A stretch of 64,000 bases of DNA from Candidatus Kerfeldbacteria bacterium. Lineage in GTDB: Bacteria; Patescibacteriota; Patescibacteriia; UBA9570. The stretch's first letter is position 1; every line of letters begins with the position of its first letter. The stretch lies in NCBI GenBank assembly GCA_016182495.1, contig JACPGK010000022.1, positions 11,092-75,091 of the forward strand, read 5' to 3'. Positions 25,485-56,617 of this stretch are shown here, piece by piece. The notes under the pieces were generated by a model, which did no database searches, was not told the DNA's origin, and worked only from the letters and a program-made list of their open reading frames with translations. A program made the translations under genes and the position numbers.

Positions 25485-25494
25485 ATATACTTCT

Positions 25495-36434: not shown

Positions 36435-36483
36435 GTTTAACCATAATATTGACAGTTTGTAAAAAAAATGCTATACTTCTGGC

Positions 36484-39137: not shown

Positions 39138-39138
39138 T

Positions 39139-41055
39139 ATGGCCAATGAACACATAACTGTATTTGCTGCTACCAACTTCCGTAATCAACGGCGCAATTT
39201 TGGTATTAAAGTTGATGATCGTCGCCGGCACATGTATTTGGTTGGTAAAACTGGCATGGGCAAATCAACCGTGATTGAGAATACTATTATTAATGATATT
39301 CGCGCTGGTCATGGCGTGGCCTTAGTTGACCCGCACGGTGATTTGGCGGAAAAAGTATTACGATATATTCCTACCAGTCGAGTAAATGACGTGATTTATT
39401 TTAATCCGGCTGACATTAATTATCCCGTAGCTTTTAACATTTTAGAAAGTGTTGGTCCGGAATACAAACATCTGGTGGCCTATGGTTTAGTAGGAGTATT
39501 CAAAAAAATCTGGGCTGATTCCTGGGGGCCACGCATGGAATATATTTTAACCAATACCATTTTAGCTTTGCTGGATTATCCCGGTAGTTCATTATTAGGC
39601 GTCATGCGCATGTTGGTAGATAAAGCCTATCGTAAAAAAGTAGTTTCTAAAGTGACCGATCCAGTGGTCAAAACATTTTGGACGGATGAATTCGCCAATT
39701 ATTCAGAAAAGTTTCGTTCCGAAGCCATTGCTCCAATTCAAAACAAAGTTGGACAATTTTTAGCTTCATCGATTATTCGTAATATCGTTGGTCAATCCAA
39801 AAGCACTATTGAAATGCGCGAAATCATGGATAATCAAAAAATTCTCATCATGAATTTATCAAAAGGCCGGGTAGGCGAAGAGAGTTCTGCCTTGCTTGGA
39901 GCCATGATGATTACGAAATTACAAATTGCCGCCATGAGCCGAGTAGATATTCCGGAAGAAGACCGCAAAGATTTTTATCTCTATGTTGATGAATTTCAAA
40001 ATTTTGCCACGGATAGTTTTGCTGGAATACTATCGGAAGCTCGTAAATACCGCCTCTGTTTAATTATGGCGCATCAATATTTAGAACAATTGGGAGATGT
40101 GGTGAAAGCAGCCGTGTTTGGTAACGTTGGTACTATAGTAGTGTTTCGAGTAGGTGCCACTGATGCCACAGAGATGGAGCCAGAATTCGCTCCCCAGTTT
40201 ACCGCGCAAGATTTAGTGAATTTAAAAAAATATACTTTTTGTTTACGTTTAATGATTGATGGAGTAGCCACCGAACCGTTTTCAGGCATTGGTTTACCAC
40301 CAGTCACCGGCGAAACCGATGTGTTTGATAAAATTATTCGAGTGTCGAGAGAACGCTATGCTCGCCCTCGCGCCATGGTTGAGGAGCGGATATTGCGCTG
40401 GAGTGGAGTGGAAATCACCGGTGCCATTAAACCGGCTGGTGAAGAAGCTAATACTGAAGCGAGCGATGAGGATACCACTGACGATACCACAATGGATATT
40501 CCTGCTGCTGTGGAAACTAATCAACCAGCGACTGGCTCGGTGGTAAGTTTAATACCAGAAGAACCCGACCTGCCAATAACTGTATCAACCAGTCCAGAGG
40601 TAAAGCCAATTCGTCCGAAGATTAATTTTGTTCGTTTGGAACTACCAGATGATGACATCAAGCCAGCTGTTCCGAATCCAGTAACCGTTGAAGCAGTTCA
40701 GCCCAGTACACCAGTCCCACCGTCTAAACCAATAGTTATTCCAGCTCATACTGTGTCCTTGTCAGATTTGCGCCAAGGCAATGTTGAGCGCGTTAGTTTT
40801 TCTGGCAGTCAAAACCGATCACCTCAACAACCACAGCTTCAACCACAGCCATCGACCATGGCAGAAGACCCTGTACGTAAAAAACGCCACCGCCGTCGCA
40901 ATAAAAAACCAAGCCAAGATCAATGGCAAAATACAACACCTGTACAGCCACCAATCCAACCAGTTCGTCCGCCTGCACCCAAGCCAGTGCCACCACCAGC
41001 CAACAATCAAACGATTGATCCAACCAAGGTATCATTGAATGATTTGTTTAATTAA
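39139..41055 (+). CDS. FtsK/HerA/TraD-superfamily P-loop NTPase (VirD4/TraD coupling-protein-like, TraG-D_C type) with Pro-rich C-terminal tail
   Basis: Walker A LVGKTGMGKST, VDPHGDL, Walker B-like LYVDEFQNF. The C-terminal 200 aa are low-complexity P/Q-rich. Start chosen at MANEH (39139). Confidence 0.7.
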   Translation: MANEHITVFAATNFRNQRRNFGIKVDDRRRHMYLVGKTGMGKSTVIENTIINDIRAGHGVALVDPHGDLAEKVLRYIPTSRVNDVIYFNPADINYPVAFNILESVGPEYKHLVAYGLVGVFKKIWADSWGPRMEYILTNTILALLDYPGSSLLGVMRMLVDKAYRKKVVSKVTDPVVKTFWTDEFANYSEKFRSEAIAPIQNKVGQFLASSIIRNIVGQSKSTIEMREIMDNQKILIMNLSKGRVGEESSALLGAMMITKLQIAAMSRVDIPEEDRKDFYLYVDEFQNFATDSFAGILSEARKYRLCLIMAHQYLEQLGDVVKAAVFGNVGTIVVFRVGATDATEMEPEFAPQFTAQDLVNLKKYTFCLRLMIDGVATEPFSGIGLPPVTGETDVFDKIIRVSRERYARPRAMVEERILRWSGVEITGAIKPAGEEANTEASDEDTTDDTTMDIPAAVETNQPATGSVVSLIPEEPDLPITVSTSPEVKPIRPKINFVRLELPDDDIKPAVPNPVTVEAVQPSTPVPPSKPIVIPAHTVSLSDLRQGNVERVSFSGSQNRSPQQPQLQPQPSTMAEDPVRKKRHRRRNKKPSQDQWQNTTPVQPPIQPVRPPAPKPVPPPANNQTIDPTKVSLNDLFN

Positions 41056-41058: not shown

Positions 41059-42651
41059 ATGCAACGCGCTTGCGTTCAGTGTCATCAATCCTTCGCAGTG
41101 TTTGAGCGCGATCAAATATATTATCAACAGCTCGGCGTACCTACTCCAACCAAGTGTCCACAATGTCGCTTTCAATTACGCCTGTCGTTTCGGAATGAGC
41201 GTTTTTTGTATCAACGCAACTGCCAGCTTTGCCATCAACCAACGTTATCTCAATATGCAACAGATAAACCATATACAATATATTGTCGCCAGTGTTGGTG
41301 GTCTGATCAATGGGATCCGCTAGATTTTGGCCAAGTGATTGATTGGAACCGATCGTTTTTTGAACAATTCGCAGAGGTAAAACTACAGGTGCCGCGCTTG
41401 GGGTTACTCAATGATGCGGACAGTGAAAATAGTGATTTTTGCAACCGCGTAAACAAACTGAAAAATTGCTATATGATTTTTGACGCCGTTGCTAATGAGA
41501 GCTGCATTTACGGTTCCGGCATGTATGGCAATAAAGATAGTGTTGATTGTGATTATTGTGATCGCGTTGAGCTGTGTTATGACTGTAGCTATTGCACAGA
41601 CAGTTATGGTTTACGTTATAGCCGCGACAGCGTGAATTGTCGTGATAGTGCGCTATTAGTTGATTGTGTGGGCGTTTCCAATAGTTTGATGTGTGTCGGT
41701 TTACGCAATGTCCAATATTGTTATAAAAACAAACAACTAACCCAAGCCGAATTCCAAACCGTTTGGAATAATTCTAATTTTGATAAAATTGAATTTGAGC
41801 AATTTGCCCTAACAATTCCGCGGCGGTATTACCAAGGCGTTCACAATGACGATAGTAGTGGCGATCATTTAGTGAACACCCATGCCGTCCTAAATTCATT
41901 TCAAGTACGTGATAGTGAAAATTGTGGGTACTGCTATGGAGTACATCATGCTAAGGATTCCTATGACTATACGATTTGGGGTGAACAGGCTGAATTAATG
42001 TATGAAGATCATGCTTGCGGCGGGCAATGTTCAAAAATTTGGTTTGGAAACGTGGTGTGGTACGGCCATGATACTTTGTATTGCGACCATTGTTTAAACG
42101 GGGCAATTAATTGTTTTGGTTGTGTTGGTCTTAAGAATCAGCAAAATTGTATTTTAAACAAACAATACTCACCAGACGAGTATCAGCAATTAAGCCAACG
42201 TTTGATTGAGCAGATGCGTTTAACCGGAGAATATGGTCATTTTTTTCCAGCCAGCTTGAGCGATTTTTGTTATAATGAAACTATGGCCCAGGAATTTTTT
42301 CCCTTAACCAAACAACAAGCCTTGGCCAGTGGTTGGCAATGGCAAGATCATTTACCTGGTAGTTACGGCCAGGCTGATTTGGCGAAGCAGATTTATACTT
42401 GTGCAGCATGCACTAAAAATTTTCGTTTAATTGCTCCTGAATTAAAATTTTATCAGCAGCAAGGCATTCCCTTGCCAATCCGTTGCCCAGATTGTCGCCA
42501 TGCCGAGCGCATGAAATATCGTTCACCGTATCAATTATATAATCGTCAGTGTATGAAACCAGGTTGCCCGAATCATTTCCAAACAGCCTATGGTCCAGAT
42601 CGGCCGGAAATTATATATTGCGAGGACTGTTATCAGAAAGAGATGTATTAA
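41059..42651 (+). CDS. Cys-rich zinc-ribbon repeat protein, array member P1 (unknown family)
   Basis: 530 aa. N-terminal module CVQCHQSF..PTKCPQCRFQLRL, central CxxC-rich repeats (FGCVGLKNQQNCILNKQYS), the GEYGHFFPASLSDFCYNETMAQEFFPLT motif, and a C-terminal module CAACTKNFRLIAPELKFY..PIRCPDCRH. It starts 3 nt after the ATPase stop. Confidence 0.75.
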   Translation: MQRACVQCHQSFAVFERDQIYYQQLGVPTPTKCPQCRFQLRLSFRNERFLYQRNCQLCHQPTLSQYATDKPYTIYCRQCWWSDQWDPLDFGQVIDWNRSFFEQFAEVKLQVPRLGLLNDADSENSDFCNRVNKLKNCYMIFDAVANESCIYGSGMYGNKDSVDCDYCDRVELCYDCSYCTDSYGLRYSRDSVNCRDSALLVDCVGVSNSLMCVGLRNVQYCYKNKQLTQAEFQTVWNNSNFDKIEFEQFALTIPRRYYQGVHNDDSSGDHLVNTHAVLNSFQVRDSENCGYCYGVHHAKDSYDYTIWGEQAELMYEDHACGGQCSKIWFGNVVWYGHDTLYCDHCLNGAINCFGCVGLKNQQNCILNKQYSPDEYQQLSQRLIEQMRLTGEYGHFFPASLSDFCYNETMAQEFFPLTKQQALASGWQWQDHLPGSYGQADLAKQIYTCAACTKNFRLIAPELKFYQQQGIPLPIRCPDCRHAERMKYRSPYQLYNRQCMKPGCPNHFQTAYGPDRPEIIYCEDCYQKEMY

Positions 42652-42652
42652 T

Positions 42653-44092
42653 ATGATCAAGCAATGTGCCCAGTGCAGTAAAACCTTCCAGATTGATAGC
42701 AGTGATCAGGATTTTTATAAACGAATGCAGGTGCCAGTCCCAAAGCTGTGTCCGAATTGTCGTCAACAACGGCGCCTAGCTTGGCGCAATGAACGTAGTT
42801 TGTATCCAGGAACTTGCCAGCATTGTCGTAAGCCTCTGATTTCACTGTATTCACCGAACAAACCGTATACAATTTATTGTCAGGATTGTTGGTTATCTGA
42901 TCAGTGGGATCCTTTTGATTACGCTCGAGATTATAACCCCAAACAATCTTTTTTTGAGCAAGTCAGGGAATTGCAATTGGTTGTTCCGCGCATGGCTATC
43001 ACTATCCGAAATTGTGAAAACAGGATTGCATGGATTTTATCATGCCGTATCAATGTCAATTATGCTACGAAGTGATTGAATGCAGCGATTGTTACCACTG
43101 TTTATTTTCCCAGCGCTGTGCCAATTGCCGAGATTGCTATTTTTCCTATAATTGTCGTAGTTGCCATGATTGTTTTGGTTGCATCAATTTGCGTAATAAG
43201 CAATATTGTTGGTTTAATCAACAACTCACCGAGGCTGAATATAAAGGCCGATTACAAAACATAGCATGGACTCACCAAACCATTGCCGACTATCGTTTAC
43301 AATTCGCTCAATTAAAATTGACTCAACCACATCTGGCCAGTGAACAAATTCATTGCGAAGCTAGTACTGGCGATTTAATGAAAGGATGTAATCATACCGA
43401 GTATGGTTTTGATGTTTACGATCAAGAACACACATCATATGTCTTTGATGTTCGCGAGACCAAAGATAGCCATGATTTATTCATCGGCGGATTTGGTAAT
43501 GAATTAACCTATGAATGTCATAGTGCCTTGCAAACGCAACACGGTGTCAGTTTGAATGTTTGCTGGGATGGTAATTATAATCTGTATTATTGCGATCACT
43601 GTTTTACCTCACATGATTTATTTGGTTGTATTGGATTACGTCAGCAGCAGTTTTGTATTTTAAATACACAGTATAGTGCAGTTGACTATAAAAAAATTAC
43701 ACGACAAATCATCGCCGATATGACACAAACGGGGGAGTGGGGAGAATTTTTTCCAATCTCTTTATCACCATTTGCCTACAATGAAACAGTAGCGCAAGAA
43801 TATTTTTCATTAACTGAAGCAGCCATTAAGGCCAATGGGTGGCAATGGCAGTCAATGTCGAAAAAATTATCGAATTGTGCCAACTGAACTGGCATATTAT
43901 CGGCAATTTGGTGTACCAATTCCACAACTGTGTCCACAGTGCCGACACTTGGCGAGAATGAAAATGCGTAATCCGCGACAGTTGTGGCAACGTCATTGTG
44001 CCAAATGTGCTGCCATGGTTACAACAACCTATGCACCTGATCGGCCGGAAATTATATATTGTCAAGATTGTTATCAGCAGGCGGTGTATTAG
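42653..44092 (+). pseudogene. Frameshifted member P2 of the Cys-rich family (three frame segments)
   Basis: The N-terminal module (42653..43075), central part (43030..43887) and C-terminal module (43835..44092) are homologous to intact paralogs but lie in three different frames. Confidence 0.7.
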
Positions 44093-44127
44093 ATCTCATC
44101 CCCCGCCCCTCATTTTATTCGGGACAC

Positions 44128-44151
44128 CCCCTTCTCTTGCAAGAGAAGGGG
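44128..44151. repeat. Perfect 24-bp GC-rich palindrome CCCCTTCTCTTGCAAGAGAAGGGG
   Basis: Seen directly. It belongs to a three-member family in the array and has no downstream T-run. Confidence 0.6.
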
Positions 44152-44258
44152 CTATGGTAACAATAATTACTGTCTAAGACGCGTCTATTGCCAAAGGAAG
44201 GTTTCCATGCTACGCTTGTTTAGCGTCCTAGTTTGGGCGCATTTTATTTATTATAAAA

Positions 44259-44669
44259 ATGTTAGCGAAAAATAAGATACCCCCAGAGATTAATTTTCAA
44301 AAGAAATTACATTATATTTCTCGTAAATTACGCGCTCACTCAACCGCAGCAGAGAAATATTTGTGGCAATTTTTACGAAGGAAACAAATATTAGGTTTAA
44401 GGTTTTTACGGCAACATCCAATTGATCGCTTTATAGTCGATTTTGTTTGTTATCGTTTTAAGATTATTATAGAAGTAGATGGTCCAATACATTTAATTCA
44501 TCAAGGCAGAGACAAACAACGAGACGAAAGGTTACAGCAATATGGTTATGTAATATTGCGTTTTAGTAATGATCAAGTTTTACATGAAATTAATAGCGTA
44601 TTAGCTATAATTAAACAACAAACCCTCTCTTCCCTTGTAAGGGAAGAGAGCAGGAGAGATGGGATCTAA
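44259..44669 (+). CDS. DUF559 / Vsr-like endonuclease-domain protein
   Basis: The motifs IVDFVCYRFKIIIEVDGPIH...RDERLQQYGYVILRF match the restriction-endonuclease-like DUF559 fold. GC-rich palindromes lie on both sides. Confidence 0.65.
   Translation: MLAKNKIPPEINFQKKLHYISRKLRAHSTAAEKYLWQFLRRKQILGLRFLRQHPIDRFIVDFVCYRFKIIIEVDGPIHLIHQGRDKQRDERLQQYGYVILRFSNDQVLHEINSVLAIIKQQTLSSLVREESRRDGI
44625..44650. repeat. GC-rich palindrome CTCTCTTCCCTTGTAAGGGAAGAGAG
   Basis: Seen directly. It overlaps the 3' end of the DUF559 ORF. Confidence 0.55.
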
Positions 44670-44798
44670 AGTAGTATCTAAATTAAGTTTACATCTCATC
44701 TATTTTTTTTGGCTAACATTAGATTCAATATTAAGCTCAAACAATAAAAATCTAAAACACTTTGACTACGTTTGGCGGTGAAGTATACTAATGTTTAT

Positions 44799-46508
44799 AT
44801 GACAAAACAATGTAAACAGTGCAGCAAGACATTTCAAATTAGTAGTGATGATCAAACGTTTTATCAAAAAATATCAGTGCCTGAACCAACTTTATGTCCT
44901 GATTGTCGATCACAACGGCGGTTAGTGTGGCGCAATGAACGTAGTTTATACTCCCGACAATGTGATTTGTGTCATAAACCTATCATCTCACTCTACCGTG
45001 CTAACAGCCCTTACACAGTGTACTGTTATGCTTGTTGGTATTCTGATCAATGGAATGGATCCGACTACGCTCGCGAGATCGATTGGCAGAGATCGTTTTT
45101 TGATCAGTTTAAAGAATTACAGTTACGGGTACCGCGCCTATCTGCTTTTATGGTAAACAACGAAAATTGCGAATATACCAACGGCACACTGGGTTGTAAA
45201 GATTGTTACATGATTTTTGCTAGCGATCATAATGAAAACTGTATGTATTCATACGGTATTTTTAGCAGTGTGACTACACTAGATGTATTAAGCGGAAAAA
45301 ATTGTGAATTATGTTATGACTGTATTGGTTGCACTAATTGTTTTAATGTACGGTATTCTGAAGATGCCAGTAACTGTAATACTGCTTATTTTTTGTTGGA
45401 TTGTAAAGGTTGTGGTGATTGTTTTATGTCGTATGGTTTACACAACCGTAATTATGTTTGGAAAAATGAACAATTAACAGAGGCTGAATATAAAGAACGC
45501 TTAGCCAAAACTCAACTAGGTAGCACGCAAACCATTAAACGTTTAAAAGCAGATTTTAAAGAATTAAAAAAGAAACATACTTTTAAATATTATCACGGTC
45601 AAAATAATGATAATTTTTCCGGAGATTACTTAGAGCGCTGCCATAATACCTGGCAATCATTTGAATGTTACGAGATTGATAACTGTAAATTTATTACGCA
45701 TGGCAATCAAATTAAAGATTGCTACGATGGTTATATGAACGTCGATCAGTGTGAGCTTGGTTATGAATTAGTCGGTTCGGTTGGGGCCTACAACACTAAA
45801 TTTGCTGCTGCCTGCTATACCGGCTCATATTCCTATTACATTGATTCCTGTAAACAAGTGAAAAATGTGTTTGGGTGCATTGGTTTGCAAAATCAGCAAT
45901 ATTGTATCTTGAATAAACAATATTCTGAACAAGAGTATTGTATTACGCGCGATAAATTAATTAAGCAGATGTCCGCAATCGGTGAGTATGGTGAATTTTT
46001 TCCGGTCAGCTGCTCGCCTTTTACCTATAATGAAACTGCCGCTATGGATTCATTTCCGTTAAGTCAAACCGATGTAGTCAATCGAGGTTGGAATTGGCAC
46101 ACACCACCTGATAAACAACAGCGTTTCAGCAGCTATCGTTTGCCAGATACGATTGATAAAGTGGAAGATGATGTATTGGAAAATTTTCTCACCTGCGAAC
46201 AGTGTCAAACTTTTTATAAAATTATTCCAGCAGAATTACGCTTGTATCGCGAGCACATCATCCCCGTCCCACGGCAGTGTTTTAATTGTCGCCACGCTGG
46301 CCGATTGCAACAACATACTCAACGGTCTTTATGGCAACGCCAATGTATGTGTACCCGCCCGCCAGGGCAAGCCGCAGGCGTTGCGGGCGCGGCCCAACCC
46401 GAACATGGCCATGGTGGTTTGTGTCAGAACAATTTTGAAACGGCCTATAGCACTGATAGTATTACTATCGTATACTGTGAGGATTGTTATAATAAGACTA
46501 TAGTATAA
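44799..46508 (+). CDS. Cys-rich zinc-ribbon repeat protein, array member P3
   Basis: N-terminus MTKQCKQCSKTFQISSDDQTFYQKISVPEPTLCPDCRSQRRLVWRNERSLY. It carries a GC-rich insertion (RPPGQAAGVAGAAQPEHGHGG) in the C-terminal module. The track ORF uses TTG 44772. Confidence 0.75.
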   Translation: MTKQCKQCSKTFQISSDDQTFYQKISVPEPTLCPDCRSQRRLVWRNERSLYSRQCDLCHKPIISLYRANSPYTVYCYACWYSDQWNGSDYAREIDWQRSFFDQFKELQLRVPRLSAFMVNNENCEYTNGTLGCKDCYMIFASDHNENCMYSYGIFSSVTTLDVLSGKNCELCYDCIGCTNCFNVRYSEDASNCNTAYFLLDCKGCGDCFMSYGLHNRNYVWKNEQLTEAEYKERLAKTQLGSTQTIKRLKADFKELKKKHTFKYYHGQNNDNFSGDYLERCHNTWQSFECYEIDNCKFITHGNQIKDCYDGYMNVDQCELGYELVGSVGAYNTKFAAACYTGSYSYYIDSCKQVKNVFGCIGLQNQQYCILNKQYSEQEYCITRDKLIKQMSAIGEYGEFFPVSCSPFTYNETAAMDSFPLSQTDVVNRGWNWHTPPDKQQRFSSYRLPDTIDKVEDDVLENFLTCEQCQTFYKIIPAELRLYREHIIPVPRQCFNCRHAGRLQQHTQRSLWQRQCMCTRPPGQAAGVAGAAQPEHGHGGLCQNNFETAYSTDSITIVYCEDCYNKTIV

Positions 46509-46531
46509 TTTGCAATGATCAATTTAACTCT

Positions 46532-48112
46532 ATGTCTATTTGTCAAACCTGCCAAACCAATTTTACCATCACCAGTAATGATCAGCTATTTTATGACAAA
46601 GTAAAAGCACCGTTACCAGTACAATGTCCGCAATGCCGCTTGCAGAAACGCTTAGCGTATCGTAATGAACGCAGCTTGTTTAGCAGCATTTGCGGTTTGT
46701 GTCATAAAAATATTTTGTCATTATATAATCCAGCTGATCAGTTCACCGTGTATTGCAACGATTGTTGGTGGTCAGATAAATGGGAACCAACCAATTATGG
46801 CCGCGCCATTGATTGGTCGCGTTCCCTGATTGAGCAGTGGAATGAAGTACGCCGAGCGGTACCGCGTTTAGCTTTGGTGAGCTTGAATAGTGAAAACTCT
46901 GATTACACGAACATGTCATCGGATAATAAAAATTGTTATTTATTATTCGCGGCCGAAAATAATGAAAATTGTTCCTATGGTAAATTAGTGCAAAAATGCA
47001 AGGATTGTTTCGATTGTAGTTTTATTTACGATTCTGAATTGTGTTACGGCTGTGTGAATATTCGTAATTGTTATCACAGTATTTATTTGCAAGATTGTCA
47101 GGATTCGCGGGATTGCGGTTTTTCGATTGGTTTGCGCGGTTGCAGTAATGTTTGGTTCAGTGCAAATTTGCACAATAAAGAATATTATATTGCTAATCAG
47201 TCGGTGCCACCAGCTGAATTCCAGCAACGGGTGCAAGTTTTAACAGCTGATGCCGTCGCGTTAAAAAAAAGTTATCAAACTTGGCGAGAATTAAATAAAG
47301 ACAGGATTGTAAAATATGCTCACAACATTAAAAGTGACGGCTGTACCGGCGATAGTTTAACCGACTGTAAACGTATCTATGACAGTTTTGATGTTACCGG
47401 CGGTCAGGACTGTGCGTATATGACCGATGCCTTAGAGTCGCGAGATTGTTATGATGCATCGTTTATTTATTATAAGCCAGAATTAGTGTACGATAGTTTG
47501 AGTATGTTGCAGTGTTATAATGTGCAATATTCCGTGTTTACGTTTTATACATCAGACAGCCAGTATTGCGATCAAGTGCACAATTCAAAAAATATCATGT
47601 TGTCATCCTGTTTACGTAATAAACAATTTGTAATTCTAAATAAACAATACAGCCAAGCAGAATATGAAGTCCTGCTGCCAAAAGTGATTGCCGCCATGAC
47701 TACAGTAAGTGATTATGGTCAACTACCACCAGCTGAACATAGTTTATTTGCCTACAATGATACTGTAGCCCAAGAATATTTTCCGTTAACCAAACAACAA
47801 GCACTGGCGGCTGGGTATCGTTGGAATAATGCCGCGGATGAACGAATACACAAACCATTTAAGCTTACTCAATCAGAATCAGTTTTTTATCAAACCATGA
47901 ATTTACCAGAACCAACTGAACATCCTGAATTACGTCATCGGGCGCGCATGGCTTTACGCAATCCTCGTCAGTTGTGGCAACGACCATGCCAGTGTACCCA
48001 AACAAATCATAATCATGCTACTACTTGCCCAGAAGTGTTTTTAACTAGTTATAGTACTGATCGTCCTGAACAGGTGTATTGTGAGCGGTGTTATCAACAA
48101 ACCGTCATTTAA
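46532..48112 (+). CDS. Cys-rich zinc-ribbon repeat protein, array member P4 (C-terminal ribbon cysteines lost)
   Basis: The N-terminal module is intact. In the C-terminal module the CxxC..CPxC positions are replaced (HKPFKLTQSESVFY..PEPTEHPELRHRAR). Confidence 0.72.
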   Translation: MSICQTCQTNFTITSNDQLFYDKVKAPLPVQCPQCRLQKRLAYRNERSLFSSICGLCHKNILSLYNPADQFTVYCNDCWWSDKWEPTNYGRAIDWSRSLIEQWNEVRRAVPRLALVSLNSENSDYTNMSSDNKNCYLLFAAENNENCSYGKLVQKCKDCFDCSFIYDSELCYGCVNIRNCYHSIYLQDCQDSRDCGFSIGLRGCSNVWFSANLHNKEYYIANQSVPPAEFQQRVQVLTADAVALKKSYQTWRELNKDRIVKYAHNIKSDGCTGDSLTDCKRIYDSFDVTGGQDCAYMTDALESRDCYDASFIYYKPELVYDSLSMLQCYNVQYSVFTFYTSDSQYCDQVHNSKNIMLSSCLRNKQFVILNKQYSQAEYEVLLPKVIAAMTTVSDYGQLPPAEHSLFAYNDTVAQEYFPLTKQQALAAGYRWNNAADERIHKPFKLTQSESVFYQTMNLPEPTEHPELRHRARMALRNPRQLWQRPCQCTQTNHNHATTCPEVFLTSYSTDRPEQVYCERCYQQTVI

Positions 48113-48239
48113 TTTTCAAAGCCCACCTTAGAGGCTGATCATTACTTTGTAGTATAAATCAGGTTGACATCTTTGCATTTTTTTATTACCTTACCTTAGC
48201 CTAAATAATAACTTTTCAACAGTAAAAATATAAGGTCGT

Positions 48240-49052
48240 TTGACCACGGTACGCAATACACTTATGCTTACTACGAAATTAAAGAAAGATCTTTTACAAC
48301 TTGGTTTAAGTGACAACGAGATTAAATTCTATGTGGCTGGTTTAGAACTGGGCTTAGCCACTGTCCCACAAATTGCCCAGCGTGCTGGTTTATCACGCAT
48401 GAGCGGTTACAATATTTATAAAAGTTTGAATCAGCAAGGCTTAGCCGAAATGGACGTGCGCAATTACGGCCAAAAATGCAAAGTCGCCAAACCGGCAAAA
48501 TTATTGACGCTGTATGAGCAAAAAACCCGCCAACTTGATAAACTGGCTACTGACTTGCCGAATTTAATTGGAGAGCTCAATGTGCTGTATGCTAGTGTGC
48601 CGGAAGATTTAGAGATTCATTATTATCGCAGCAAAGATGCCATTATGAAAGTGTGGGATGAAGCACTCACCAACACTAAGAAAGGCGATGATATTTTGAC
48701 GATTGCAGCAGTTGATTTTGCGCCCACGCTCGGTGCACATTTTGTTGAGTATATAGAAGAATTAGCGTTACGCTGTCAAGAAAAAGGCATTCATCATAAG
48801 TTGATTCTTGAACAAACCGGTTCTTATTCCTATGATCGTAAACTATTGCAAAAAATATTTCCAAAATCAATCATGATGAAGTTAGGGGCGACGGTTGAAC
48901 AGATGGTCTATGCTGATTACGCCGCTTTCATTTTTCCCGGCAAAGAATTATTCGCTATCACTATTCATAGCAAAGAATTAGCCAATCACTTTTCAAGAAT
49001 ATTTTATACCCTGTGGAATACGGTACATGCAACGACAATGCGTACAATGTAG
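48240..49052 (+). CDS. TrmB-family HTH transcriptional regulator
   Basis: The N-terminal winged helix LGLSDNEIKFYVAGLELGLATVPQIAQRAGLSRMSGYNIYKSLNQQGLAE and a C-terminal TrmB-like domain. TTG start. Overlaps the P5 start by 26 nt. Confidence 0.6.
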   Translation: MTTVRNTLMLTTKLKKDLLQLGLSDNEIKFYVAGLELGLATVPQIAQRAGLSRMSGYNIYKSLNQQGLAEMDVRNYGQKCKVAKPAKLLTLYEQKTRQLDKLATDLPNLIGELNVLYASVPEDLEIHYYRSKDAIMKVWDEALTNTKKGDDILTIAAVDFAPTLGAHFVEYIEELALRCQEKGIHHKLILEQTGSYSYDRKLLQKIFPKSIMMKLGATVEQMVYADYAAFIFPGKELFAITIHSKELANHFSRIFYTLWNTVHATTMRTM

Positions 49053-50688
49053 CAAAACGTTTCGGATCGAAGATCAAGATCTTGAGTTTTATGAAAAAAT
49101 ATCTGTACCACCACCCACGTTATGTCCGGATTGTCGCCAGCAACGCCGCTTAGCTTGGCGCAATGAGCGCAACTTATATGAGCGAACATGTAGTCTATGT
49201 CACCAAACTATTATTTCAATGTATCGGCCAGACACACCGTACACTATCTATTGCCAACCGTGCTGGTGGAGTGATCGTTGGGAATCCACCGATTACGCTC
49301 AAGCATATAATCCTCAAGGTAGTTTTTTTGAACAATTTTCTGAATTACAACGTCAGGTACCACGAGTTGCCTTGGCAAATAATAATTCCGAAAATTCACC
49401 CTATTGTAATTTTGGAGATGGTAACAAAAATTGCTATTTAGTCACCAGTTGTAATTACAATGAAGATTGTTTTTATGGTTTTTGGATGGTCAACAATAGT
49501 GATTGTGGAGATTTAGCCTATGCCATGGATAATCGGATGTGTTATGAACTAGTGGATTGCAATAACTGCAATCAAGTACGTTACAGTCAGGATTGTCGCG
49601 ATTGTAATGAAGCTTGGTTATTGTATGACTGTGCTGGCTGTTCGAATTGTTTTGGTTGTACCAATTTACGGATGAAACAATATTATATTTTTAATAAACC
49701 GTATGCGCCGGATGCATATACTAAGCTCGTACAACAGTACACTCAAGATCGAGCTCATTTCAATGAAGCGCTTAAGCAATTTTCTGATTTAAAGAAAAAA
49801 TCAATTCAAAAATATACCAAAGGTACTAATAATAGTAACGTTACCGGCGGTGGTATTAGAAATTCGCATAATGCTAAATACTGTTTTGAAGTGGTTGAAG
49901 TAGTTGATAGCGCCTATGTCTTCGATGGTTTGCGCGCTAAAGATTGCTATGATTTAGCTTTTTTTGATGAAACAGAATTATGCTATGAATGCCACAGCGT
50001 GATTGGTTATAACATGCAGTTTAGTACCATGTGTCGGACATCACCTGATACGCAATATTCTGATAGCTGTCATAATTGCAAAAATGTATTCGGTTGCGTT
50101 GGCTTGCGTAATAAACAATTTCATATTTTGAATAAAGCGTATTCTAAATCAGCCTATCAAAAATTACGTGCCAGTATTATTAATGATATGACAATAGCTG
50201 GTGAGTATGGTGAATTTTTCCCAGTCAACTACTCTTTCTTTAGTTATAATGAAACACTAGCACAAGATTTTTATCCATTAACAAAAAAGCATGCCGCGGT
50301 ATTCGGATGGAACTGGTTTGATGCACTTACCAAAGTCATCACCGAACCTATTAGTGTAGTTCCAGATGATATTAGGCTCGTGTCTGATGATGTTGTTCAA
50401 GCAGTGTTTACTTGTAAGCAATGTCAACGACGTTTTAAAATTATTCCACAGGAGTTATCACTCTATCGCCGCTTAGGTGTACAATTACCGCAATATTGTT
50501 TTGTTTGTCGGCAACAACAGCGTGAGCAACTGCGTAATCCGTGGAAATTATTCAGGCGTCAATGTATGTGCACGCAGACCAGCCATGGTCATCAAGGGCG
50601 CTGTGTAACCGAATTTGAAACCAACTATGCACCATCGAGTACAGCCATTATTTATTGTGAGCATTGTTACCAAAAAGAGATATTTTAA
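49027..50688 (+). CDS. Cys-rich zinc-ribbon repeat protein, array member P5
   Basis: 553 aa with about 45 Cys. It has both terminal modules and both central CxxC blocks. Confidence 0.78.
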   Translation: MQRQCVQCSKTFRIEDQDLEFYEKISVPPPTLCPDCRQQRRLAWRNERNLYERTCSLCHQTIISMYRPDTPYTIYCQPCWWSDRWESTDYAQAYNPQGSFFEQFSELQRQVPRVALANNNSENSPYCNFGDGNKNCYLVTSCNYNEDCFYGFWMVNNSDCGDLAYAMDNRMCYELVDCNNCNQVRYSQDCRDCNEAWLLYDCAGCSNCFGCTNLRMKQYYIFNKPYAPDAYTKLVQQYTQDRAHFNEALKQFSDLKKKSIQKYTKGTNNSNVTGGGIRNSHNAKYCFEVVEVVDSAYVFDGLRAKDCYDLAFFDETELCYECHSVIGYNMQFSTMCRTSPDTQYSDSCHNCKNVFGCVGLRNKQFHILNKAYSKSAYQKLRASIINDMTIAGEYGEFFPVNYSFFSYNETLAQDFYPLTKKHAAVFGWNWFDALTKVITEPISVVPDDIRLVSDDVVQAVFTCKQCQRRFKIIPQELSLYRRLGVQLPQYCFVCRQQQREQLRNPWKLFRRQCMCTQTSHGHQGRCVTEFETNYAPSSTAIIYCEHCYQKEIF

Positions 50689-50697
50689 TTTAGATTC

Positions 50698-50719
50698 CTC
50701 CCCAACCCCTCCCTTGCAA
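50698..50719. repeat. Perfect 22-bp GC-rich palindrome CCCCTCCCTTGCAAGGGAGGGG
   Basis: Seen directly, 10 nt after the P5 stop. Confidence 0.6.
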
Positions 50720-50748
50720 GGGAGGGGCGAAGGGGAGAGATCAAAAGT

Positions 50749-52425
50749 ATGACCAAGCAATGCGTCCTCTGTAGTAAAACCTTCGTCATCGAACCAGATG
50801 ATCAGGTGTTTTACGATAAAATTCAAGTACCAGCGCCAAAACTGTGCCCAGATTGTCGATTACAGCGTAGATTAGCGTGGCGGAACGAGCGCAGTTTATA
50901 TCTCCGGCAGTGCGATTTGTGTCATAAAAACATCTTGGCATTATATCCAACCAATTCTCCTTACACCGTATATTGTCACGATTGTTATTGGGGAGATCAT
51001 TGGTCGAGCTTCGATTATGGTCGAGCGATTGATTGGTCACGGCCGTTTTTTGATCAATTTGTTGAGCTCTATAGCAGTGCACCGCATGCGGCTGCTTACA
51101 ATGATAATCCAGAAAATAGTGATTACGTTAATTATTGTTATCAAGCGAAAAATGATTATTTAGTGTTTGGTTCAAATTTTACGGAGAATTGTTACTATTG
51201 TTATCATTTAGATAGTTGTAATCAGTGTGTTGATTGTTTAAACTCGGACCACTTGGAATTATGTAGCAGTTGTGTGGATTGTTCACACTGTTATAACACG
51301 CATTATGCACAGGAATGTCATAATATGCGTGATAGTTATTTCTGTTTTGATTGCCGTACTAGTGCTGATTGTTTTGGCTCAACTGGCTTGCGGAATAAAC
51401 AATATGTCTTGTTTAATAAACAACTGGATGCGACTACCTATCATAAACAATTAGAATACTATTTAGCAAAAAATTCGTCAGAACAATTAGCTGATCTGGC
51501 GAGGCAGTTACGCTATAAAGTACCACAGCGCCCGGCCATGATTACCAAATGTGAACAGTCATCCGGTGATCATTTACAAAATTGTTCTAACGCTCAATAT
51601 TGTTTTGATTCTGCTGAACTCACCAATTGTAAATATATTATTCATTGTACCCCCAAAGCGTTTGATTCAATGGATGTGTATGGTGGCGGCGTGAATATTG
51701 AACGTTGTTATGAATTTTTGACTGGCTATGGTCAGAATTTACGTTTTAGTATGCTGTGCTGGAAATCTGTATCAAACTTGGATTATTGTATGTTGACGAA
51801 TTTTGCTCATGATTGTTTTGGCTGTTTCTCTTTGAGAAACGGACAATATTTTATTTTAAATACAGCCTATAACCAGTCAGATTATCAAAAATTACGTCAG
51901 CGTTTAATTAAACATATGCAGAATACAGGTGAATATGGTGAATTTTTTCCAATTGATCGATCAATCTTTGCTTATAATGAAACTGCGGCACAATTAGATT
52001 TTCCATTATCGTCCAAAGATGTGATCGCACAGCAGTGGTCATGGACTGAAGCTGTTGCTATGATCACAGGTCAACAAACAGCCGACATTACGTCATATCC
52101 ACAACTCGCTAGGCAAACCTCAGCTGGTTTGGCTGGAGAAATTTTTCAATGTCAGCAATGTCAACGTAATTACAAAATAATTTCTCAAGAGTTGGATTTC
52201 TATAAAAAGCAAAATGTATTTTTACCGCGGCAATGCTCTAATTGTCGATTTCATAATTTATATAAACTGAGATCGGGTTATCACATTTGGCAGCGTCAGT
52301 GCATGTGCACACAGACCGGCCATGGCCATCATGGTTTGTGCATGACTAAATTTGAAACTACCTACTCCCCGAATCGTAAAGAAATAGTGTATTGTGAAAG
52401 TTGTTACCAAAAAGAGATTTATTAA
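50749..52425 (+). CDS. Cys-rich zinc-ribbon repeat protein, array member P6
   Basis: 558 aa. Its C-terminus YCESCYQKEIY and the downstream junction TAATATG are nearly identical to the P1/P2 junction. Confidence 0.78.
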   Translation: MTKQCVLCSKTFVIEPDDQVFYDKIQVPAPKLCPDCRLQRRLAWRNERSLYLRQCDLCHKNILALYPTNSPYTVYCHDCYWGDHWSSFDYGRAIDWSRPFFDQFVELYSSAPHAAAYNDNPENSDYVNYCYQAKNDYLVFGSNFTENCYYCYHLDSCNQCVDCLNSDHLELCSSCVDCSHCYNTHYAQECHNMRDSYFCFDCRTSADCFGSTGLRNKQYVLFNKQLDATTYHKQLEYYLAKNSSEQLADLARQLRYKVPQRPAMITKCEQSSGDHLQNCSNAQYCFDSAELTNCKYIIHCTPKAFDSMDVYGGGVNIERCYEFLTGYGQNLRFSMLCWKSVSNLDYCMLTNFAHDCFGCFSLRNGQYFILNTAYNQSDYQKLRQRLIKHMQNTGEYGEFFPIDRSIFAYNETAAQLDFPLSSKDVIAQQWSWTEAVAMITGQQTADITSYPQLARQTSAGLAGEIFQCQQCQRNYKIISQELDFYKKQNVFLPRQCSNCRFHNLYKLRSGYHIWQRQCMCTQTGHGHHGLCMTKFETTYSPNRKEIVYCESCYQKEIY

Positions 52426-52426
52426 T

Positions 52427-54106
52427 ATGACCAAGCAATGTACCCAGTGCAGTAAAACCTTCCACATTGATAGCAGTGATCAAGCCTTTTATGATCGCAT
52501 CAATGTTCCAGCACCAACCTTTTGTCCAAGTTGTCGATTACAGCGACGGTTATCATTTCGAGTTGAACGTAATATTTATCAGCGCACGTGTGACTTAACC
52601 GGCAAACCAATATTATCGGTTTACAATACTACTCGGCCATATCCGGTGTACGATATCGCTGCTTGGTGGACCGATCGCTGGTCACCTTTAACATACGGGC
52701 GAGATTTTGATTTTAAGCGGCTTTTCTTTGATCAATTTTCCGAATTACAAGTGGTGGTGCCCCGTCTGGCTTTGATTCAACAGCAGCCGATGGAAAATAG
52801 TGCCTACTGTAATGCCGCCAGTCGTAATAAAAATTGCTATTTGGTATTTTCCACCAATCAATGCGAAGATTGCTACTATGGCTCGTGGGTTAACAGTTCC
52901 AAAAATTGTGTCGATAATTATAGTATACTGCGCTGTGAATTATGTTATCAGTGCATTGATTGCAAAGATTGTTACCACTGTTGGTATGCTCAAGATAGTC
53001 GCAATTGTACAGACAGTTATTTCATTAAAAGTTGCATCGGCTGCCGCAATATCGCATTTTGTACAAATTTAGTCAACGCTGAATATTGTTTGTTCAACCA
53101 AGCGGTGACTAAACAGGTATTTGAAGAATTTGTGCAGCAATTGCGTGCCGCTACCTCTGAACAGTGGAATATATATCAACAACAGTATATGGACTTGCGT
53201 AAGAAAATGTTCATGCGTTACTACCAAGGAGTGAATAATGAAGCCAGCACCGGTCACCACATTAATAATTGTAAAAATTGTCGCGATTGTTTTTTAGTTG
53301 ATGCTTCTGAAAATATTCGCTATGGTGTCCATTTAGAATTTGTCAAAGATGCCATGGACTATAGTTACTGGGGCCAACAAGCTGAACAATTGTATGAAGT
53401 ACAAGCTTCTGGCTATAACATTACCAATCTAAAATTTTGCAATTTATGTTGGTCGGGCTGTGAAAATTTGGAATACTGCGATCATTCATTTTCATCCAAA
53501 AACTGTTTTGGCTGTGTGGGCTTAAAGAAAAATGAATATTGCATTTTAAACAAACAATATACAGCCACAGAATACGAACGATTGGTAGATAAAATAAAGC
53601 AGTACATGCGTACCACTAAGGAATATGGTGAATTTTTTCCGATGCAGTTAAGCCCGTTTGATTATAATGAAACCTTAGCCCAAGAGTTTTTTCCACTCAC
53701 AGAAACAGATGTACAGCAACGTGGCTGGCGCTGGAAAAATAAAGATCAAACTGATTATCAAGCGCAAACATATCAGCTACCAGATCGAATTGAACAGGTC
53801 AATGATGATATTTTGCAAGCAACGCTAGCTTGCCGACAATGTACTAAGAATTATCGCATTGTGGCGCAGGAACTGGTTTTTTATCGGCAGGAAAAATTGC
53901 TCATTCCAAGGTTGTGTCCGAATTGCCGACACTTGGATCGGCTAGCTCAACGACCAAAGTACGATACTTGGACACGGCAATGTATGTGTACGCAACCAGA
54001 GCATAATCATAATAATCGTTGTGTTAAAGAATTTGTGACACCATATTCACCGAATCAACCAGAGTTAATTTATTGCGAGGATTGCTATAAAAAGCAGGTA
54101 TATTAA
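52427..54106 (+). CDS. Cys-rich zinc-ribbon repeat protein, array member P7 (second N-terminal zinc knuckle degenerate)
   Basis: Its first ~50 codons are about 90% nt-identical to the P2 pseudogene start. It has CDLTGKPIL in place of CxLCHK and VYDIAAWW in place of YCxxCWW. Starts 1 nt after the P6 stop. Confidence 0.75.
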   Translation: MTKQCTQCSKTFHIDSSDQAFYDRINVPAPTFCPSCRLQRRLSFRVERNIYQRTCDLTGKPILSVYNTTRPYPVYDIAAWWTDRWSPLTYGRDFDFKRLFFDQFSELQVVVPRLALIQQQPMENSAYCNAASRNKNCYLVFSTNQCEDCYYGSWVNSSKNCVDNYSILRCELCYQCIDCKDCYHCWYAQDSRNCTDSYFIKSCIGCRNIAFCTNLVNAEYCLFNQAVTKQVFEEFVQQLRAATSEQWNIYQQQYMDLRKKMFMRYYQGVNNEASTGHHINNCKNCRDCFLVDASENIRYGVHLEFVKDAMDYSYWGQQAEQLYEVQASGYNITNLKFCNLCWSGCENLEYCDHSFSSKNCFGCVGLKKNEYCILNKQYTATEYERLVDKIKQYMRTTKEYGEFFPMQLSPFDYNETLAQEFFPLTETDVQQRGWRWKNKDQTDYQAQTYQLPDRIEQVNDDILQATLACRQCTKNYRIVAQELVFYRQEKLLIPRLCPNCRHLDRLAQRPKYDTWTRQCMCTQPEHNHNNRCVKEFVTPYSPNQPELIYCEDCYKKQVY

Positions 54107-54128
54107 TTTATAGTGAGTTTGTCGAACT

Positions 54129-55714
54129 ATGATTAAACAGTGTGTGCAAAGATTATCGTACCCCAACCAACTTTATGTCCGGATTGTCGGCAACAGCGCC
54201 GCTTAGCTTGGCGCAATGAGCGCAATTTATATCGCGATCAATGCGATTTATGTCACCAGGATATTATCTCGCTCTACCAGGCTGATTCACCCTATATAGT
54301 ATATTGTCAGGATTGTTGGTGGAGTGATCGTTGGGATCCCATCAGTTATGGTCGGGATTATAATCCCCAGCAGTCATTTTTTGAGCAAATGCACACGTTG
54401 CAATTACAAGTGCCTCGGTTAGCGCTGTTCAATTTGCATAGTACCAATAGCGAGTACACTAATCATGCTAGTCACAATAAAAATTGTTACATGGGAGTTG
54501 CGCTGGGCCAATGTGAGGATTGTTTATATGGTTTTTGGGTACTGCAATCGAAAAATTGTGTTGATAATTTATATTGTGAACAATGCGAATTGTGTTATGA
54601 ATGTTCTTATTGTCAAAACTGTTATCAAACCTATTGGTCACAGTATGGTCAAAATTTGCGCGATTGTTTGTTCTGCTTTGAATGCCGTGACAGCAGTAAT
54701 TGTATCGGCTGTGCCCAGTTACAACACAAACAATATTATATTTTGAACAAACCAGTCACGCCAGAAAAATTTGAGCAGGTTAAACAATTATTATTGTGTG
54801 ACCTAAGTGAGCGTCAAAAAATGATTACAGCCTGGGAAGAATTAAAACTGAAGGCACCACGTCGATTTAATCTTCAACAACAATGCGAGTCTAGTACGGG
54901 AGATGATTTATATAATTGTCATAACGCTGTACATTGTTTCAATTGTCACAATTTGGAAAATTGTAAATATATGTATGACCTGGGCAACAATAAAGATGGC
55001 ATGGATTGCTATGAGCATGGTTGGATGGTGCCGAGTGAGCTATGCTATGAAACACATGCCGGTATGGCTGGTTTCAATTTTAAATTTTGTAATATTTGCG
55101 TTGAGAGTCGTGATTTAACCTATTGCGATTTGTGTCAGCAGAATTGCGCCAATTTATTTGGTTGTGTGGCCTTACGTAAAGCCAGTTATTGTATTTTGAA
55201 TCGCCAATACAATGCTACTGATTATCAGGTATTGGTTAAAAAAATGATTAGCGACATGATTAAAACAGGGGAATATGGTGAATTTTTTCCGATGCAGTTA
55301 TCGCCCTTTGCATATAATGAATCCACTGCTCAAGAATATTTTCCGTTGCAGCGCGATCAAGTATTGGCTTCTGGTTGCCAGTGGTATGAAGATAATAGTC
55401 AATTATCCGCCGTCAATGCCCAGCCAGATGTACAGCTGTGCCAACAATGCCACAGATCATTTCGTTTAGTGGCTGCAGAACTGAAATTTTATCAAGAAAC
55501 AGGGATTCCACAACCAGCCTATTGTGCTGATTGCCGTCATCAGCGCCGTATGCAATTACGCAATCCACGCCAATTGTGGCAGCGGCAATGTATGTGCACC
55601 CAGACAGATCATAAACACTCTGGCCGTTGTACGACAGAATTTGAAACGACTTATTCGCCCGACCGAAAAGAATTAGTATATTGCCAAAAATGTTATAATA
55701 AAGCAGTGTATTAA
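54129..55714 (+). pseudogene. Array member P8 with N-terminal deletion/frameshift (possibly still expressed from GTG 54140)
   Basis: ATG 54129 encodes MIKQCVQ, then about 50 nt of the first zinc knuckle are missing and the frame shifts. The track ORF resumes at GTG 54140 (MCAKIIVPQPTLCPDCRQQRRLAWRNERNLY...). Confidence 0.6.
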
Positions 55715-55870: not shown

Positions 55871-56617
55871 CTATGATAGTGGACTTTTTATGTTTTTAAG
55901 CTTTGGATTTGTAACATGGGTATACTGTTGGGTGGTTCTAATATTCTGATGGCCAAGCAACTCTTGAACATAACGAATATCAACACCGTTTTCTAATAAG
56001 TGAGTAGCAAAGCTATGTCTTAAGCTATGAAAGGTGGCATTTTTTTGGATCCCAGATTTTTTTAAAGAATTTTCAAAAATTTTTTGAGCACTTCTCGTTG
56101 TTAAGTTTCCGCCCCGCTCACTTGCAAAGATAAAATCATCATGATTTTTTCCGCTGCACAAATTTTTAAGATCAGCTACCAATTTTTCTGGCAATATACT
56201 CATTCTATCTTTTTGCCCCTTAGCTTGTTTGATATGAATGGTTAGTTCAGCAAGATCAATATCTTTTACCTTTAGTGCAACCACTTCACTCACTCTAAGT
56301 CCTGCGCCATAAGAAAGTGACAATAAAATTTTGTGTTTTGTATTTTTGGTTGTCTCTAAAATTTTTTCAATTTCTATTCTTGATAATACTATAGGCAAAC
56401 TTTTTGGTTTTTTAGCAGATTGGATATCAATTTTTTGGTTATTTTTCACTACATCTCGATAATAAAACTTAATTGCATTTAGAAATAAATTTCTGCTTTG
56501 CGCAGAGGTATTCTTTTGTTTGCACTCTAATAAAAAGTCTTTGATATTATCTGGCTGTACTATTTCAAAGTTTTGTTTTTTAAAGCAAAAGTATTTTTGT
56601 AAGCCATAAAGGTACAT
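55871..56617 (-). CDS. Tyrosine site-specific recombinase (XerC/D-like phage-integrase family), possibly N-terminally truncated
   Basis: The catalytic residues are in canonical order: R (AGLRVSE), HxxR (HSLRHSFATHLL), Y (RTTQQYTHV). At 248 aa only about 60 aa of the core-binding domain are present. Confidence 0.8.
   Translation of the reverse strand: MYLYGLQKYFCFKKQNFEIVQPDNIKDFLLECKQKNTSAQSRNLFLNAIKFYYRDVVKNNQKIDIQSAKKPKSLPIVLSRIEIEKILETTKNTKHKILLSLSYGAGLRVSEVVALKVKDIDLAELTIHIKQAKGQKDRMSILPEKLVADLKNLCSGKNHDDFIFASERGGNLTTRSAQKIFENSLKKSGIQKNATFHSLRHSFATHLLENGVDIRYVQELLGHQNIRTTQQYTHVTNPKLKNIKSPLS

Follow-up and report, generated by a model that had tools for sequence, protein, structure and literature searches.

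A tandem array of Z genes in a Kerfeldbacteria chromosome

The window analysed here is a 64,000-nucleotide stretch of chromosomal DNA (GenBank assembly GCA_016182495.1, contig JACPGK010000022.1, positions 11,092 to 75,091) from a metagenome-assembled genome (MAG) of a groundwater Candidatus Kerfeldbacteria, a tiny-genome member of the Patescibacteria (candidate phyla radiation). Nearly all of its genes lie on the + strand, including lepA, ftsW, murG, murC, murB, secA, secDF and metal-transport genes, and 14.7 kb (41059-55714) are taken up by eight + strand copies (P1 to P8) of one family of ~550-aa proteins, for which we use the working name Z. Six of these copies are intact, the exceptions being the pseudogene P2 and P8 with its 5' deletion; the intergenic gaps are mostly 1-60 nt, and only 3 nt separate the stop codon of a VirD4-like ATPase gene from P1. 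A first-pass annotation made from the sequence alone had described eight consecutive same-strand genes: the number and the strand are correct, but besides the two damaged copies the series is interrupted by two non-Z genes, one for a DUF559 protein and one for a TrmB-like regulator.

P1 (41059..42651, 530 aa) retains all four of the zinc sites described below, with a C-terminal site that lacks the CMCTQT.H.H insertion, and has orthologues at 70%, 61% and 70% (partial) identity in the related loci L031, L033 and L162, the last being the closest relative of the window array. P2 (42653..44092) persists as three frame segments (42653-43021, 43021-43854 and 43853-44092) that are 70-78% identical to an intact 546-aa orthologue in L033 (translated from its open reading frame, ORF), relative to which residues 139-172 and 451-467 are deleted with a change of frame at each deletion; the orthologue in L162 is also intact (530 aa). 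The P1/P2 (42630-42660) and P6/P7 (52400-52430) junctions resemble each other, each with a TAA stop, one base and an ATG, and are 75% identical over the 200 nt that span them, which suggests either duplication of a two-gene unit or merely conserved coding ends on both sides. Just 3' of P2 lies a perfect 24-nt palindrome (44128..44151; 100% over 24 nt against the opposite strand by self-blast), ~70 nt upstream of a terminator-like hairpin (44223-44240) and followed by the DUF559 gene (44259..44669, + strand; PF04480, 3.1e-35), whose product has a Vsr-like endonuclease fold and whose 50% identical counterpart also sits within the L162 array.

P3 (44799..46508) encodes 569 aa from the ATG of 'MTKQC', its ORF opening at a TTG (44772); a Gly/Ala-rich stretch of 13 residues is inserted in its last zinc site, and its orthologues in L031 and L162 are 60% and 55% identical. 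P4 (46532..48112, 526 aa) is intact as an ORF; none of the ligands of zinc site 3 remain in it, and its version of the conserved motif described below is degenerate (SDYGQLPP). As the same site is gone from its 63% identical orthologue L031|7843, the loss is old and maintained. The TrmB-like winged-helix regulator gene (48240..49052, + strand; PF01978, 6e-8) overlaps the start of P5 by 26 nt, and orthologues of it (73-78% identity) lie within the arrays of L004, L031 and L162, in L162 directly 5' of the P5 orthologue, with remoter TrmB-like genes in or beside the arrays of L001, L052 and L066. P5 (49027..50688, 553 aa), identical (100%) to the Candidatus Kerfeldbacteria protein HYV33_03920 at NCBI and with orthologues in L162 (64%) and L001 (54%), and P6 (50749..52425, 558 aa; 59% identical orthologue in L001) are intact with all four zinc sites. 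P7 (52427..54106, 559 aa) is intact too and has lost zinc site 2 (CDLTGK...YDIAAWW), a loss shared by its orthologues L001|6510 (65%) and L031|13720 (81%). In P8 (54129..55714) an out-of-frame deletion has removed ~16 codons near the 5' end, leaving a remnant ATG at 54129 ('MIKQCVQ') and an open frame from a GTG at 54140 (524 aa) without the first CxxC knuckle; the N-terminus is complete in its orthologues L004|4132 (68%) and L001|3078 (60%).

Architecture of the Z proteins and their place among known families

Profile comparison revealed two internal duplications: the N- and C-terminal modules are homologous (hhalign 99.7%, E 4e-27), as the first-pass annotation had proposed, and so are the two cysteine-rich blocks between them (hhalign 99.9%, E 5.5e-33). 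Alignments and hhalign together thus give the layout zinc module, solenoid 1, solenoid 2, GEYGEFFP motif and zinc module, and the order of motifs read from the window holds in alignments of its seven translatable copies and of 112 family members. Each end module contains two zinc sites, a treble-clef knuckle and a zinc ribbon. In solenoid 1 the cysteine columns recur every 12 residues (136/148/160/172, 178/190/202 and 181/193/205), the solenoids close with the motif CFGC.GLRN.QY.ILNK.Y, and the conserved acidic-aromatic motif before the last module reads GEYGEFFP...SPFAYNET.AQE.FPL..GW.W. P5 was modelled with AlphaFold2 from an alignment with 112 homologues (mean pLDDT 87.8, pTM 0.88). Z proteins would be a new structural type in which two zinc-ribbon end modules flank paired solenoids of 12-residue period.

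Cysteine makes up 5.9-9.0% of the window copies, a wider and lower range than the 8-10% first reported. Scoring its presence column by column in 545 family members, and that of whole zinc sites also in the 112 aligned members, we found that the ligand columns of the zinc sites behave as units: those of site 2 (C55, C58, C76 and C79) are all-or-none (phi 1.00), with phi values of 0.73-0.94 for site 3 and 0.6-0.75 for site 1. None of the 112 aligned members lacks site 4, which lies at the extreme C-terminus; site 2 is missing from ~30-40% of members and site 3 from ~20-25%. The solenoid cysteine columns are occupied at frequencies of 25-91%, exchange Cys for Ser, Val, Leu, Ile or Ala and show pairwise phi values of at most 0.38. 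Since they are replaceable and weakly correlated, these cysteines are probably ladder-packing residues and not obligate sites for zinc or disulfides. The idea of a series of zinc or iron-sulfur centres within the solenoid, also considered, was rejected for this absence of co-conservation. A single Z protein is predicted to bind up to four zinc ions.

The end modules are basic (pI 8.4 and 8.8, the C-terminal one with a median net charge of +5), the solenoids and motif region are acidic (pI ~5-6), as is the variable linker, and the whole protein has a median net charge of -5. In agreement with the first-pass annotation, no signal peptide or transmembrane (TM) segment was seen in the Z copies by a hydropathy scan (maximum Kyte-Doolittle score over 19 residues at most 1.61; no dedicated predictor was used), and the proteins open directly with a CxxC knuckle. 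They are most likely soluble and cytoplasmic.

No named family covers these proteins, as had been suspected. The first knuckle of the end modules (C..C...F.I...[DE]..FY.....P..C..CR) fits the Pfam models PF13451 (zf_Tbcl) and PF23477 (zf_Tbcl_2): at the PF13451 gathering threshold of 24 bits P1 (34.7), P3 (27.1) and P8 (27.7) score above and P4 (23.2) and P5 (18.0) below, P6 and P7 gave no hit to PF13451, and the homologue P0054 matches PF23477 at the last zinc site. Both models describe 'probable treble clef' domains of short bacterial proteins of unknown function. They cover ~40 of the ~550 Z residues, leave out the solenoids, the GEYGEFFP motif and the second ribbon, and bring no function with them. 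Beyond the terminal knuckles nothing matched in Pfam or NCBIfam (E <= 0.1) or in PADLOC (E <= 0.01), the last also giving no defence-system match. A profile of the 112 members run against all PDB sequences reached a best E of 0.18, with chance-level LIM-domain hits only. The profile searches and structure prediction proposed for P5 thus produced a confident model and no whole-protein match.

The best structural hit is curli CsgA (8c50), a secreted, fibre-forming amyloid subunit without zinc modules, unlike Z. We also compared the left-handed beta-helix class of hexapeptide-repeat acyltransferases and gamma-carbonic anhydrases; the combination of a hexapeptide-repeat signature (PF00132 family) with a confident structural superposition was not found for Z proteins. 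The insect antifreeze solenoids (spruce budworm CfAFP, PDB 1m8n) are secreted and held by fixed disulfides, whereas Z proteins have interchangeable cysteines and no signal peptide. The obligate cysteine pairs of such disulfide-laddered beta-helices are absent from the Z solenoids, as their phi values (at most 0.38, against 0.73-1.00 for zinc-ligand sets) indicate. No Z copy hit the DnaJ models PF00684 (cysteine-rich zinc finger) or PF00226, the sole tie to DnaJ being the dnaK, dnaJ and grpE neighbourhood described below. Family members are already known as database entries labelled 'hypothetical' or 'zinc-ribbon domain containing', and treble-clef knuckles and beta-solenoids are familiar building blocks. 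A description of the Z family was not found in the literature on the Pfam names, on zinc-ribbon or cysteine-rich paralogues in Patescibacteria, or in the Southlakia Tn-seq paper; as far as these searches reach, the architecture, the restriction to Patescibacteria, the habitual tandem amplification and the gene neighbourhoods are undescribed.

Range of the family and age of the paralogues

A word-indexed search returned 3,654 Z relatives and an exhaustive profile search 2,492 clusters at 50% identity (E <= 1e-30), nearly all of them 520-600 aa long and aligning end to end at ~40% identity; a genome scan for relatives used a 33-sequence subset of the alignment. Every informatively named source belongs to the Patescibacteria (Kerfeld-, Peregrini-, Gracili-, Uhr-, Falkow-, Lipton-, Nomura-, Staskawicz-, Jorgensen-, Harrison- and Brennerbacteria, Paceibacterota and Minisyncoccia). 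Z arrays together with a TrmB gene 77-78% identical to that of the window also occur in two MAGs (L004 and L031) that bear the label 'uncultured Gammaproteobacteria', probably through errors of binning or taxonomy. The phage, plasmid and IMG/VR collections contained no relatives, and the idea of a mobile or phage-borne family was dropped for this reason.

Neighbourhoods and array sizes were counted in 81 loci fetched around family members. Same-strand tandem arrays are usual among them (2-12 copies per 20 kb), the largest holding 16 copies in 29 kb of a single contig (L036 plus L041). Copy number ranges from 1 to 16, solitary Z genes included. The window array is therefore typical, and tandem amplification is the normal state of the family. 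The metagenome search proposed for the family and its array context thus showed a large family that usually forms arrays, and it added the point, missed at first, that the amplification is not special to this genome.

Within the window the copies share 36-46% protein identity, which bears out the 30-50% estimated in the first-pass annotation. The same annotation had ascribed 80-90% nucleotide identity to the terminal modules and read this as birth-and-death or gene conversion in a variable, contingency-type family. An all-against-all blastn of the array did not bear out the premise: the longest matches are 67-76% identical (best 74.7% over 245 nt and 75.5% over 200 nt), and 82-89% is reached over 45-69 nt only. 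Related genomes contain an orthologue of each window copy at 54-81% identity, against at most 46% to any neighbour. Across the 81 loci 94% of 250 full-length copies are closer to a copy at another locus than to any neighbour, the best identity within a locus has a median of 42.6%, and only 2 of the 250 have a neighbour above 70%.

Gene order is partly conserved as well. In L162 it runs P1, intact P2, two unrelated members, the DUF559 gene, P4, P3, the TrmB gene and P5, and in L031 P1 ... P3, P4, TrmB ... P7. The array backbone, DUF559 and TrmB genes included, is thus inherited; some members are lineage-specific and the right-hand part (P6-P8) is variable.

Between orthologues the proportion of synonymous differences (pS) is saturated at ~0.75 and that of nonsynonymous differences (pN) is 0.06-0.30, so that dN/dS per domain is not precisely estimable from any of the available orthologue pairs. 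The solenoids nonetheless show the lowest pN of all regions (0.06-0.29), the opposite of what diversifying or relaxed selection on the variable blocks, the point of the proposed per-domain check, would produce. Between paralogues the end modules are 54% and 45% identical and the solenoids 38% and 34%, whereas between orthologues the solenoids (74% and 67%) surpass the end modules (66% and 60%). The solenoids, least conserved across paralogues and most conserved across orthologues, show that each paralogue keeps a solenoid sequence of its own, an asymmetry to be expected if paralogue-specific functions lie in the solenoids and common ones in the ends. The pseudogene, the damaged copy, the range of copy number and the lineage-specific members fit slow birth-and-death under strong purifying selection, and this half of the earlier interpretation stands.

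Gene neighbourhood and possible role of Z proteins

Clustering all non-family ORFs of the 81 loci to rank neighbours, we found that a VirD4/TraD-like ATPase gene is the most recurrent one, present in about 28-30 loci (~35%) at a median distance of ~115 bp and mostly on the same strand as Z. Patescibacteria have genomes of ~1 Mb, and with ~2 such genes per genome (PMC12102498) the rough chance expectation would be ~4%. Two divergent ATPase types often bracket the Z genes, and ~12 of 15 type-A genes in Z loci directly precede a Z gene. One recurrent arrangement consists of a Sigma-r4/HARE-HTH gene, Up522, the ATPase and the Z array (the window, L005, L033, L045 and L075, with a variant in L025). 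In the window this block opens with the Sig/HARE gene (36484..37560, + strand), which encodes a sigma-70 region 4 (PF04545, 4.3e-13) joined to a HARE-HTH domain (PF05066, 3.6e-9). Next comes Up522 (37569..39137, + strand), a conserved partner 5' of the ATPase that has a hydrophobic segment (residues 19-37), a Pro-rich tail and no Pfam or PADLOC match. The ATPase gene (39082..41055, + strand) encodes a P-loop protein of the VirD4/TraD (type IV coupling protein) kind, without an N-terminal TM domain and with a long Pro/Gln-rich C-terminal tail; it matches TrwB_AAD_bind (1.4e-10), TraG-D_C (1.4e-5) and DUF87 in Pfam and the TraD and CD1115 VirD4-like models of NCBIfam, with weak mad8/HerA matches only in PADLOC. 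Its ORF from 39082 overlaps Up522 by 56 nt, and translation probably begins at an ATG (39139) 1 nt past the Up522 stop. The best promoter-like site of the region lies 5' of the Sig/HARE gene (36449-36477), in a promoter and terminator scan of the array that as a whole did not exceed shuffled expectation, and Rfam and tRNA scans of the window gave no matches.

In the other arrangement, found in many Paceibacteria-type loci, the order is GrpE, Z (1-4 copies), an opposite-strand PaaX-like regulator gene upstream of dnaK, DnaK, ATPase-A, Z, ATPase-B and DnaJ. Many genomes of this type (L007, L010, L015, L017, L054, L072, L074, L077, L144 and L151) have a split grpE-dnaK-dnaJ operon, with one or two genes for VirD4-like ATPases placed after dnaK and before dnaJ, and L151 has DnaK, two ATPases and DnaJ without any Z gene. 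The block of Sig/HARE gene, Up522 and TM-less ATPase gene is likewise kept in most of 80 metagenome loci collected around close relatives of the window ATPase (L082-L161), in varied housekeeping contexts, and seems to be a separate unit that does not depend on the Z family. A 2025 survey counted 5,713 VirD4-type genes in 2,918 Patescibacteria genomes, with virB4 nearby for only 148 of them; epibiotic growth did not require the single homologue that was tested, and exaptation has been proposed (PMC12102498).

On the far side of the array lies an opposite-strand tyrosine recombinase gene of the phage-integrase family (55871..56617, - strand; PF00589, 1.6e-44), with similar genes near the Z family in four further loci. 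Past 56 kb the GC content falls from ~0.40 to 0.34-0.37, so that a mobile or variable region may begin there, and beyond the recombinase an AbiEii-type toxin gene (61970-63253) follows a small partner ORF (together 61360-63253, + strand). The left part of the window holds a second, smaller paralogue cluster, three same-strand Fic/DOC-domain genes (11020-12171, 12344-13369 and 14790-15848). Genes for metal handling cluster at 19401-28197 and encode a 660-aa and a 940-aa heavy-metal P-type ATPase, the larger one with HMA domains, as well as an ABC transporter pair and a fusion of HMA, DsbD_2 and cupredoxin domains (23861-25225). In two paralogous proteins (29933-31348 and 31862-33256) FG-GAP repeats are joined to a YkuD L,D-transpeptidase domain at the C-terminus.

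These data lead us to a tentative reading, which we hold as a possibility: Z proteins may be cytoplasmic zinc-ribbon scaffolds with common ends and paralogue-specific solenoid faces that serve as adaptors or clients of an ATP-driven pathway. The conserved ends and the motif would supply one common activity, for example binding to nucleic acid or to a partner common to all paralogues, and the solenoid surface of each paralogue a distinct, stably conserved specificity, so that one array would encode a repertoire of ~6-16 specificities and not a rapidly varying set. Since Z genes recur beside orphan VirD4-like ATPase genes and inside grpE-dnaK-dnaJ, the shared partner may belong to an ATP-driven protein- or DNA-handling pathway; the adaptor or recognition role, like any physical contact of Z with the ATPase or with Hsp70, is inferred. 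Several observations weigh against this proposal. The binding partner is a hypothesis drawn from gene neighbourhood, and the cytoplasmic location would follow solely from the absent signal and TM segments. Solenoid 2 is modelled in P5 with less confidence (pLDDT 67-78). A Z gene is present in just 6 of the 80 ATPase-centred metagenome loci, and in the rest the Sig/HARE-Up522-ATPase block is followed by housekeeping genes (such as pgk, recJ-like, rnhA, mnmA and murJ). Lone Z genes occur far from any ATPase (for example L002, L021 and L023), and the 28 ATPase-positive Z loci are not independent, as many share one or two ancestral arrangements. The association is enriched but facultative and due in part to shared locus ancestry, and because few ATPase loci carry the family we treat the link between the two as a hypothesis.

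Effector genes form arrays beside virD4 in other bacteria, as the bep genes of Bartonella do, and Xanthomonas effectors are recognized by VirD4 through a conserved C-terminal domain. Z paralogues lie directly 3' of a VirD4-like ATPase gene, often within a few nt, and their basic C-terminal module is invariant and positively charged. They could accordingly be pictured as effector cargo of this ATPase, engaged through that module and exported to the surface or to a host, where the cysteine ladders could oxidise and stabilise the solenoids. The Hsp70 genes of the same operons could keep such cargo export-competent, and both episymbiosis and type IV secretion systems are documented in Patescibacteria (PMC12102498, PMC10633639). 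We nevertheless consider export unlikely: no channel cluster of a type IV secretion system was recognised among the 20 most recurrent Z neighbours (no VirB4 model was run), most coupling-protein genes of the phylum are far from virB4 and the tested one is dispensable for epibiotic growth (PMC12102498), most ATPase loci lack Z genes, the solenoid cysteines do not form the obligate pairs that disulfides would need, and the strong purifying selection and uniform architecture would be unusual in an effector repertoire. The VirB2 pilins of Patescibacteria are also encoded in tandem, by 2-11 divergent paralogues that share on average 25% identity within an array (PMC12102498), but they are small, secreted and encoded beside virB4, and Z proteins are large, lack a signal peptide and are not encoded near virB4. 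The ends of Z proteins also invite a reading as nucleic-acid binders, in which two basic zinc-ribbon modules are spaced by a rigid acidic solenoid and the paralogues differ in target or spacing, perhaps together with the ATPase as a DNA translocase of FtsK/VirD4 type. VirD4-type ATPases translocate DNA in conjugation, both ends combine treble-clef or zinc-ribbon modules with a conserved Arg-rich helix (RRLAWRNER), and genes for the sigma-r4/HARE-HTH protein and for winged-helix regulators share the loci. This reading seems to us quite unlikely, given that the whole protein is negatively charged, that no nucleic-acid-binding family matches past generic zinc knuckles, that zinc sites 1-3 are dispensable in many members and that the paralogue-specific part is the acidic solenoid and not the basic ends.

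Old paralogues kept in partly conserved order with tight, operon-like spacing could also assemble as hetero-oligomers into a larger structure, for instance a scaffold of stacked solenoids that is part of a cytoskeleton or associated with the envelope. Stable zinc-site losses in particular paralogues would fit specialised subunits, and the best structural hit, CsgA, forms fibres. A copy number of 1-16 between genomes fits a fixed complex poorly, though, and the motif at the solenoid end and the flanking domains would, from the layout of sequence and secondary structure, be expected to hinder end-to-end stacking, which makes such an assembly improbable. Metal or thiol buffering, that is storage of zinc, copper or iron-sulfur clusters or a redox role, is brought to mind by the 6-9% cysteine with its many CxxC motifs, by the label 'thiol-disulfide isomerase/thioredoxin' that JGI gives to P0010 and by the heavy-metal P-type ATPase genes 13-21 kb upstream in the window. 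As cysteines of the solenoids can be replaced one by one and are uncorrelated, neither a thioredoxin fold nor a match to thioredoxin was found, metal-transporter genes do not neighbour Z at other loci and storage would leave the paralogue-specific solenoids and the conserved non-Cys motif unexplained, we regard this role as very improbable. Finally, we give almost no credence to the contingency reading, under which the array would diversify by gene conversion or rapid birth-and-death like antigenic or arms-race families. A tandem array of divergent copies, one of them a pseudogene and one damaged, with variable copy number, lineage-specific members and a recombinase gene at its border, might look like such a family. 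It is not supported because there are no high-identity conversion tracts (at most ~75% over >=200 nt), neighbours above 70% are as rare as stated, orthologues persist across genomes with shared peculiarities such as the zinc-site losses of P4 and P7, and pN lies far below pS, with the solenoids best conserved of all. The lack of a signal peptide also argues against surface antigens, and no hypermutable tract was noticed in the sequences read (no dedicated repeat scan was made).

Patescibacteria account for a large share of bacterial diversity and have few characterised lineage-specific functions. Here a single undescribed family fills 14.7 kb, and its 16 copies in another genome fill 29 kb, which would be a few percent of 1 Mb; it is conserved over its full length across many Patescibacteria classes and has no homologue of known structure or function. 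Such genomic investment implies an important lineage-specific role. The ATPase and Hsp70-operon neighbourhoods provide a testable lead for the family and for the orphan VirD4-like ATPases alike. In a bolder version, which we think doubtful, Z would be the missing partner set of these ATPases, and ATPases, the Up522 membrane protein and Hsp70 would form a lineage-specific ATP-driven machine for which the solenoid face of each Z paralogue selects a different client, protein or nucleic acid, or by which Z itself is exported toward a host. If true, these ultra-small episymbionts would possess a transport or remodelling system not recognised before, and the arrays would supply its repertoire of specificities.

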